In this document: piece by piece, positions 8,102-8,709 of the stretch
How positions within the stretch are numbered: position 1 is the first letter of the stretch
Layout of the letters: the number at the start of each line of letters is the position of its first letter
Virus record (IMG/VR): IMGVR_UViG_2718218128_000004
DNA: 17,970 nt
Direction: 5' to 3' (one strand)
DNA from: a virus
Lineage: Duplodnaviria; Heunggongvirae; Uroviricota; Caudoviricetes
Made by a program: the position numbers and the translations under genes
Notes under the pieces: generated by a model
Told to the model about the DNA's origin: nothing
What the model saw: only the letters and a program-made list of their open reading frames with translations
The model's database searches: none

Positions 8102-8368
8102 TCAGAAAAGCGGCATTTGTGGGGTGTATCCAACGGGTAAAGACCGTCTGAGCTGCTCGCCCTCATAATCAATGATGAAGACCATCGCCTCACTACCTGA
8201 TACAGGATGATCGGAGCCAAACAAAAACACATCATCCATGGTTCTTCCCATCCAGTACTTGCCGCCATACTCTACACGACGCTGAAACAAAACCCATCCA
8301 CCAAGTTCGTCACGTTCAAGCGCCTGCCCCTCATAAACGGTCTGGAATTTGCTGTTGGATTTACCCAT
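8102..8368 (-). CDS. Hypothetical small protein (88 aa), second gene of LexA-controlled operon
   Basis: ATG 8368 preceded by GAGG 9 nt upstream; in-frame TAG upstream confirms it is a separate cistron from the preceding small gene. Function not recognised; position corresponds to the tum/SOS operon of phage 186. Confidence 0.6.
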   Translation of the reverse strand: MGKSNSKFQTVYEGQALERDELGGWVLFQRRVEYGGKYWMGRTMDDVFLFGSDHPVSGSEAMVFIIDYEGEQLRRSLPVGYTPQMPLF

Positions 8369-8446
8369 GGCTAACGCCTCGTTGTACTCGTTGTTTAACC
8401 TTGCTGACGTAAGAAGCTAGTTCTCACGCCAGCAACGTTCCTGCTG

Positions 8447-8635
8447 TTAACTGGGAAGATCCATTGAGCGGTTGTATTCATGAGCACGAATCTTTGCCAT
8501 CAGCTCATCCGTTAACTCAGAAACCCACTGGATAGCCAGTCGCTTCTCTTCATCATCACACTCACTAGCCGCCACAAGCTTGACAAAAAAATCAATGCGC
8601 TGGAGCTTCAACGACTCCAAAAAATAGTCTTGCAT
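8447..8635 (-). CDS. Hypothetical small protein (62 aa), first gene of LexA-controlled operon
   Basis: I place the start at ATG 8635 (strong AGGAGG 4 nt upstream) because the track ORF start at 8758 lies upstream of the promoter; product MQDYFLESLKLQRIDFF... Confidence 0.5.
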   Translation of the reverse strand: MQDYFLESLKLQRIDFFVKLVAASECDDEEKRLAIQWVSELTDELMAKIRAHEYNRSMDLPS

Positions 8636-8665
8636 CTTCCCTCCTATCACCAAACACACAGAAAG

Positions 8666-8709
8666 CACTGTACACATATACAGTATATGCGTAGTTCCAT
8701 GAATGTAAA
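8666..8709 (-). promoter_or_regulatory. SOS promoter with LexA operator
   Basis: Minus strand: TTTACA (8709-8704), 16-nt spacer, TATACT (8687-8682); overlapping the -10 and start site is caCTGTacacatatACAGta (8666-8685), a perfect CTGT-N8-ACAG LexA box with AT-rich centre. Confidence 0.7.

Follow-up and report, generated by a model that had tools for sequence, protein, structure and literature searches.

Analysis of the window, the whole 17,970-nt stretch of DNA examined here, revealed an operon of two small genes on the minus strand (8102–8709) of a 186/Fels-2-like (Peduoviridae) prophage that is now a deleted remnant. The first gene, which we call tumA (8447–8635), encodes a 62-aa protein and has an AGGAGG ribosome-binding site 4 nt 5′ of its ATG. 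It is separated by a 78-nt intergenic spacer (8369–8446) from orf88 (8102–8368), which encodes an 88-aa protein and is preceded by GAGG, 8 nt 5′ of its ATG. Downstream of orf88, folding of the minus strand revealed an intrinsic terminator (8007–8037) with an 11-bp G+C-rich stem (8037–8012), a 4-nt loop and a TTTTGCTT tail. The 111 nt around this terminator fold at −46.8 kcal/mol (z = −3.3); a simple terminator scan did not list the hairpin. The hairpin ends about 50 nt before the cos cohesive-end sequence GGCGTGGCGGGGATACGAG (7947–7965, minus strand), which was recognised by a by-eye match to the annotated 186 cos, GGCGTGGCGGGGAAAGCAT, and its left flank. The 150-bp block that contains the terminator and cos (7939–8090) was 81–94% conserved in all relatives compared, whatever separates it from tumA. 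Of the transcription units between gene A (gpA, 9775–12159) and cos (7947–7965), the operon comes last, as p95-tum does in phage 186. The two genes, tumA and orf88, are probably co-transcribed.

A first-pass annotation, made from the letters and their open reading frames, had described 62-aa and 88-aa ORFs with good ribosome-binding sites that end at a terminator, and had likened them to the SOS module that phage 186 carries in this position. The coordinates, the ribosome-binding sites and the terminator hairpin all agreed with that description. Both ORFs look coding and are under purifying selection: synonymous codon differences exceeded non-synonymous ones in tumA (478 versus 224, in homologues from 26 loci) and in orf88 (21 versus 11).

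The SOS promoter of the operon, the analogue of p95, consists of a −35 hexamer TTTACA (8704–8709) and a −10 hexamer TATACT (8682–8687) on the minus strand with a 16-nt spacer between them. A single LexA (SOS) box, the 20-mer TACTGTATATGTGTACAGTG (8666–8685, minus strand), overlaps the −10 and the likely transcription start; its core 16-mer is CTGTATATGTGTACAG (8683–8668). The 20-mer matched the LexA consensus TACTGTATATATATACAGTA at 17/20 positions, and every element of the near-consensus CTGT-N8-ACAG box over a TTTACA-16-TATACT promoter was found where the first-pass annotation had placed it. LexA would be expected to occupy this box. The motif CTGT-N8-ACAG occurred once in the window, where shuffles gave an expectation of 0.12, and an exact copy was seen in 22 of 200 window shuffles. 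A 20-mer with three or fewer mismatches to the consensus appeared in 0/200 shuffles, and the site at 8666–8685 was the sole such match in the window. A promoter scan scored the SOS promoter at 10/12 matches. It found seven promoter-like matches in the region against 6.7 expected, which is not above chance; because scan hits were no commoner than in shuffles, the promoter call rests on conservation 5′ of the homologues and not on the scan.

To obtain a comparative set, one genome per species was scanned, which yielded 31 related loci from about 17 enterobacterial genera (Lelliottia, Serratia, Citrobacter, Buttiauxella, Raoultella, Kluyvera, Escherichia, Pantoea, Enterobacter, Tatumella, Erwinia, Klebsiella, Leclercia and others). 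A first box, CTGT-N8-[A/C]CAG, fused to a TATACT −10 with a TTTACA-like −35 upstream at the same distance from the tumA homologue, was present in 28 of these loci, and it kept its place at the −10 while the flanks diverged across genera. One of the three loci that did not have this box is a contig ending 53 nt 5′ of the ATG. A tandem second box, absent in the window, was found in 22/31 loci, where the overlapping boxes form a 31-nt composite operator, CTGT-N8-ACAGTGG-N8-ACAG. This operator, about 40–95 nt upstream of tumA in those of loci L009–L039 that have it, is similar to the double SOS boxes found in promoters of colicin genes. The window has one box only, as do 186, PSP3 and a few loci of Pantoea and Tatumella. 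The leader in the window is also ~15 nt shorter than in the relatives with tandem boxes (48 nt to the ATG versus 63–65 nt), and those of 186 and PSP3 are likewise short. An origin of the single box by a clean 15-nt deletion between tandem boxes fits this spacing; it is unproven since the downstream leader is divergent as well. The difference between one and two boxes suggests lineage-specific tuning of the threshold or timing of induction, and with a single box here against a tandem in most relatives, regulation may differ quantitatively.

A profile search placed the 62-aa protein in phrog_698 (E = 2.8e-36), with additional matches to phrog_8554 (4e-8) and phrog_1993 (E = 0.0022). Residues 1–70 of 186 Tum matched phrog_1993 (2e-23), phrog_8554 (3e-12) and phrog_698 (E = 6.7e-6), the last in register, with residues 7–44 on profile positions 7–44. 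PSP3 TumA is itself a member of phrog_1993. Comparison of the two family alignments by hhalign gave E = 4e-4 for columns 3–43 versus 3–43, at a probability of just 35%, which is low because the alignments are shallow. BLASTP of the 62-aa protein against 186 Tum and against PSP3 TumA revealed no pairwise similarity, so its tie to these two proteins is at profile level only. By eye, the shared core consists of a Cys, an acidic/basic stretch and then a helix of the form [IL]-A-[LI]-x-[LW]-[IV]-[AS]-E-[LI]. The AF2 model of TumA (pLDDT 89.8) is a helical hairpin with helices at residues 2–23 and 28–58 and the conserved Cys in the turn; a search of the PDB with this model returned generic helical hairpins only. 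For the 62-aa and the 88-aa protein alike, Pfam gave only noise and NCBIfam gave no match.

The 62-aa protein has closer relatives, one of which has been studied by experiment. It showed 90% identity to STM2728 of Fels-2 and 89% identity (55/62 residues) to the tum product of Escherichia coli HS, ECHS_RS04495. With the P2-like prophage of E. coli HS, mitomycin C no longer elicits lysis or virion foci when tum is deleted in frame or a lexA(Ind−) allele is present (Phollow study, PMC11195241). The published deletion primers (PMC11195241) join the start codon of the 62-codon ECHS_RS04495 to its stop codon, and thus delete exactly that ORF. Lemire et al. (PMC3121763) reported that tum is split in two by a stop codon in Fels-2 and PSP3, and that in PSP3 the upstream half carries the antirepressor activity (PMC3121763). 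The strain used in the Salmonella SOS-regulon paper lacks Fels-2, which makes that study uninformative here. The 62-aa protein is a split Tum (TumA) that corresponds to the N-terminal half of 186 Tum and, by analogy with 186 and with the tum deletion phenotype of HS, is probably an antirepressor. The divergent antirepressor suggested by the first-pass annotation thus took shape as a Tum-type protein in the split form, linked to Tum and TumA by profiles and backed by orthologues that are 89–90% identical. That annotation had also called the products different in size from Tum and unrecognised. The size difference is real: in this lineage the DinI half of Tum is encoded by a gene of its own, which the window lacks. 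The 62-aa protein, on the other hand, has recognised orthologues in Fels-2 and HS.

Many members of the family have been called with N-terminal extensions (87–109 aa) that start upstream of the promoter. In genomes and phage records its entries bear the name "hypothetical protein" or, in error, "levan regulatory protein". As there is no Pfam or NCBIfam model for the Fels-2/HS-type TumA family, an antirepressor with experimental support is systematically annotated as hypothetical.

The second gene product, Orf88, matched phrog_2100 over residues 1–72 (E = 1.1e-20). Its AlphaFold model (pLDDT 84.5) is that of a small α/β protein, a four-stranded sheet followed by a long helix. An exhaustive search for relatives returned 41 cluster representatives, nearly all of 80–95 residues; a word-indexed search had returned only five. 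One candidate, the 1033-aa repeat protein P0126, was judged a spurious, low-complexity match and was rejected. No match was obtained with BLASTP against 186 Tum, with the AlphaFold model against BFVD, or with Pfam (DinI, PF06183, included) for any of 27 family members. The best hit of the family profile among PDB sequences was not significant (E = 0.74), and PADLOC matched none of seven proteins that comprised both operon products and the flanking cargo. The comparison with DinI that the first-pass annotation had proposed was therefore negative for the 88-aa protein, in which neither PF06183 nor a DinI-like fold was detected.

The three closest relatives of orf88 that were looked up (39–49% identity) and its homologue in Cartapus are each the third gene of a tumA-dinI-X operon, the place that the family usually takes in such operons. 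The dinI-less order of the window recurs in locus L035 and in E. coli HZ13. Remoter relatives map to the ea region in P22-like phages and, in other phages, just upstream of the small terminase gene. The phrog_2100 family thus recurs as a LexA-controlled partner in Tum operons and in the early accessory regions of unrelated temperate phages. The idea of an SOS-triggered cargo function, which had been raised for both genes, fails for the 62-aa protein, a Tum homologue, and may hold only for orf88, an accessory gene.

In Fels-2, SEN8, MLG42, Cartapus, PSP3 and E. coli HS a 77-aa DinI gene directly follows tumA. Among the 31 related loci DinI was present in 17 and absent from 14. No DinI ORF was found between tumA and cos in the window, which holds neither a full-length Tum with a fused DinI moiety nor a tumA-tumB pair. 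The spacer between tumA and orf88 is homologous to the one that follows dinI/tumB in relatives: 8442–8370 aligned (blastn) directly 3′ of dinI in MLG42, 500465-1, Cartapus and L014, which marks the absence of tumB. These alignments indicate the loss here of the DinI-type gene normally found right after tumA.

The presumed target of TumA is the CI repressor encoded on the plus strand at 14903–15841. Pfam analysis revealed two Phage_CI_repr helix-turn-helix (HTH) domains in tandem, at about residues 22–86 and 125–196, ahead of a C-terminal Phage_CI_C domain, and no Peptidase_S24 (self-cleavage) domain. The protein that had been named CI at first pass is thus a 186-type repressor. Being non-cleavable like 186 CI, it would not respond to RecA directly, and an antirepressor is needed. 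CI proteins with the duplicated HTH were also found in PSP3 and, at 49–54% identity over the full length, in Klebsiella P2-like phages. The exact CI of the window was present in many assemblies (211 index blocks). In four contigs with this CI that were examined, TumA was identical to the HS protein (L058) or differed from it by one residue (L056, L057 and L059). The CI of HS is a 189-aa protein with a single HTH and is only 45% identical to that of the window. With this distance and the extra HTH, recognition of CI by TumA is here assumed, and the binding of TumA to the CI at 14903–15841 is put forward by analogy. TumA showed 81–97% identity and CI 43–55%. That TumA is so much better conserved than its presumed targets points to a recognition surface that is itself conserved, or to a broad specificity.

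The early and regulatory region of the prophage (int, CI, apl, cII, fil and A) is intact. In addition to gene A, the minus strand encodes a Cox/Apl-like protein (14593–14814), CII (14051–14614) and other early genes (Fil, DUF5347, DUF2732, TraR/DksA and Dam). The integrase gene is at 16918–17970+ on the plus strand. A 325-aa ORF between CI and the integrase (15853–16830, plus strand) has a weak DUF2207_C match but no confident family, and is conserved in all four other contigs with the same CI; it was considered as the integrase and rejected. The left part of the prophage is degraded. It comprises ogr (2856–3107), the N-terminal part of tail-fibre H (3275–3814, the first roughly 178 residues), gene I (3811–4416), the C-terminal two-thirds of baseplate J (4409–4855) and, beyond a deletion junction near 4921, only the C-terminal half of the portal protein (4965–5504). 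The head (capsid), terminase, lysis, sheath and tube genes are absent, and most tail genes are lost.

The left flank is host DNA encoding grxA, ybjL and the RybB sRNA (2700–2778; Rfam, 105 bits), the last at the junction between host ybjL and the ogr end of the prophage. The prophage occupies the rcdA-ybjL chromosomal site, the same as the P2-like prophage of E. coli HS. In alignments with E. coli genomes, the match to the portal-cargo-cos stretch covered only the part to the right of 4921, and that to the tumA-orf88-cargo stretch the part to the right of 7939. The same junctions were found in none of the collection's complete E. coli genomes, which suggests that the decay is recent and strain-specific. 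The module was 99.7% identical in 16 E. coli genomes, and in the one that was inspected (EC11) the prophage is apparently complete.

Taken as a whole, the locus is very probably the SOS-induction operon of a 186/Fels-2-like prophage, in which LexA represses tumA-orf88 and TumA counteracts a non-cleavable CI. The sequence features, homology, conservation and gene order behind this reading were observed at the locus itself; the need for LexA cleavage and for tum in induction would carry over from the experiments on orthologues. In an undamaged cell, a LexA dimer on the single box at 8666–8685 would occlude the −10 and the start site. DNA damage would stimulate LexA self-cleavage through RecA and free the promoter, and a bicistronic tumA-orf88 mRNA of roughly 0.65 kb would be made, ending at the hairpin (8007–8037) before cos. 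TumA, as a 62-residue helical hairpin, would then bind the 186-type CI and keep it off its operators, and the loss of CI from these would derepress the early lytic promoter (apl/cox, cII, fil and the replication gene A). Orf88 would be an accessory passenger of the operon. Since the virion genes are lost, the output of induction here would be limited to early-gene expression, excision and replication, with no virions. With cos, the replication genes, int/apl and ogr retained, mobilisation by a helper phage is conceivable.

The state of the prophage bears on this reading, as selection for inducibility may be relaxed in a deleted remnant. The operon could be intact in sequence yet a functionless relic, in which nothing that TumA expression brings about is under selection, or TumA works solely in trans, on other resident 186-like prophages. 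The truncated portal, J and H genes, the missing head, terminase, lysis, sheath and tube genes, and junctions that point to recent strain-specific decay are all consistent with a relic, and action in trans would be allowed by the much stronger conservation of TumA than of CI and by its pairing with widely differing CIs. We nevertheless consider this unlikely, for there is no damage to the promoter, the LexA box, the ribosome-binding sites or either ORF, the early and regulatory region (int, CI, apl, cII, fil and A) is intact, and the nearly identical module of the 16 E. coli genomes includes that of the apparently complete EC11 prophage. A LexA-like palindrome that arose by chance over a constitutive or inactive promoter would fit a frequency of promoter-like hexamer pairs in this region that is not above chance, and the 22 of 200 shuffles with an exact CTGT-N8-ACAG. 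It is extremely improbable given that no shuffle held a 20-mer within three mismatches of the consensus and that 28 of the 31 loci, across genera with diverged flanks, have the box fused to the −10 at the same place.

The remaining alternatives concern what the operon encodes. Both genes could be SOS-triggered cargo (a toxin, an exclusion or an anti-defence function) unrelated to prophage induction. The operon does lie in the gpA-gpQ cos-proximal interval, a diversity hotspot of P2-like phages (PMC9122126), with AT-rich cargo on both sides; the counterpart operon of 186 also carries the infection-blocking orf97, and Orf88 has no known function. For the first gene, however, cargo is contradicted by the homology to Tum/TumA and the deletion phenotype of the 89% identical orthologue, neither protein matched PADLOC, and the G+C content of the operon is that of the phage backbone, unlike that of the AT-rich islands beside it; we regard cargo as very unlikely. 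Little more probable is that Orf88 functionally replaces DinI/TumB and tunes induction by modulating RecA filaments or the SOS response. It occupies the slot right after tumA that DinI holds in 17/31 loci and is under the same LexA promoter. Somewhat less doubtful, though still an outside prospect, is that Orf88 acts as a novel effector timed by the SOS response (such as an anti-defence or host-takeover factor, or a modulator of induction), or else that TumA is a broad-specificity antirepressor that recognises a surface conserved among divergent CIs with one HTH or two. We retain the reading of a LexA-Tum induction operon.

Comparison with known systems showed that the locus adds one more case of the split (TumA) form to the known LexA-Tum induction modules, here in a prophage remnant. 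Its three local peculiarities are the single LexA box, the loss of dinI and the uncharacterised 88-aa second gene. Like the p95 operon (tum, orf97) of coliphage 186, it has a LexA box over the −10 and is located between gene A and cos. In both, the first gene encodes the Tum antirepressor module, and the target CI is of the 186 type and has no cleavage domain. Unlike the window, which encodes the 62-aa N-terminal half only, 186 encodes Tum as a 146-aa fusion of the antirepressor and DinI halves. In 186, orf97 follows, whereas the window has no orf97 homologue and carries the unrelated 88-aa gene instead. Additionally, 186 CI has one HTH and the CI of the window two.

E. coli HS tum and Fels-2 STM2728 encode orthologous 62-aa proteins with the same promoter/LexA arrangement in the same position. 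They differ in having a tandem overlapping double LexA operator and dinI/tumB right after tum, where the window has a single box and orf88 as the second gene. PSP3 tumA/tumB is likewise a split Tum with an antirepressor gene of roughly 60 aa behind a single LexA box and a duplicated-HTH CI, but its TumA falls in phrog_1993 (phrog_698 in the window) and tumB (DinI) has been kept. The Gifsy-1/2/3 proteins GfoA, GftA and GfhA are also small LexA-controlled antirepressors of non-cleavable repressors (PMC3121763), and their operons also include a dinI homologue (PMC3121763). By their published description, however, the Gifsy operons have dinI first, belong to lambdoid prophages and act on a different repressor family (PMC3121763).

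The value of these results is mainly practical, and current understanding is unchanged. Recognition of the TumA family lets annotators predict which P2-like prophages are induced by DNA damage, and the SOS operon provides a fixed anchor within the cos-proximal cargo hotspot. The absence of DinI from 14/31 species-level loci indicates that it is dispensable. The pairing of one TumA type with very different CIs bears on cross-induction between co-resident prophages. What remains of interest is orf88 and the recognition by TumA of divergent CI repressors (single-HTH and duplicated-HTH, about 45% identical).

Two AT-rich islands flank the operon. The first is a cassette of three genes on the minus strand (5568–7795; about 31–39% G+C) that encode proteins of 371, 148 and 221 aa (phrog_12777, 11490 and 9664, respectively). 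Its place, with the portal gene on one side and cos on the other, is within the cos-proximal defence hotspot of P2-like phages, and none of its products matched Pfam, PADLOC or NCBIfam. The cassette was 99.8% identical in several E. coli genomes, for example AST205. In other prophages that share this CI, Cap4 nuclease, OLD-like, KAP NTPase or RT+HNH genes stand in its place. The cassette is a candidate for a defence system of an undescribed kind. The second island (8874–9703, plus strand) is an insert of two genes, which encode proteins of 124 aa (phrog_18061) and 152 aa (phrog_16940), the latter with an apparently hydrophobic C-terminal half. This insert is divergent from tumA, between gene A and the SOS promoter, an interval of only about 150 bp in Fels-2 and HS, and was also present in 16 complete E. 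coli genomes.
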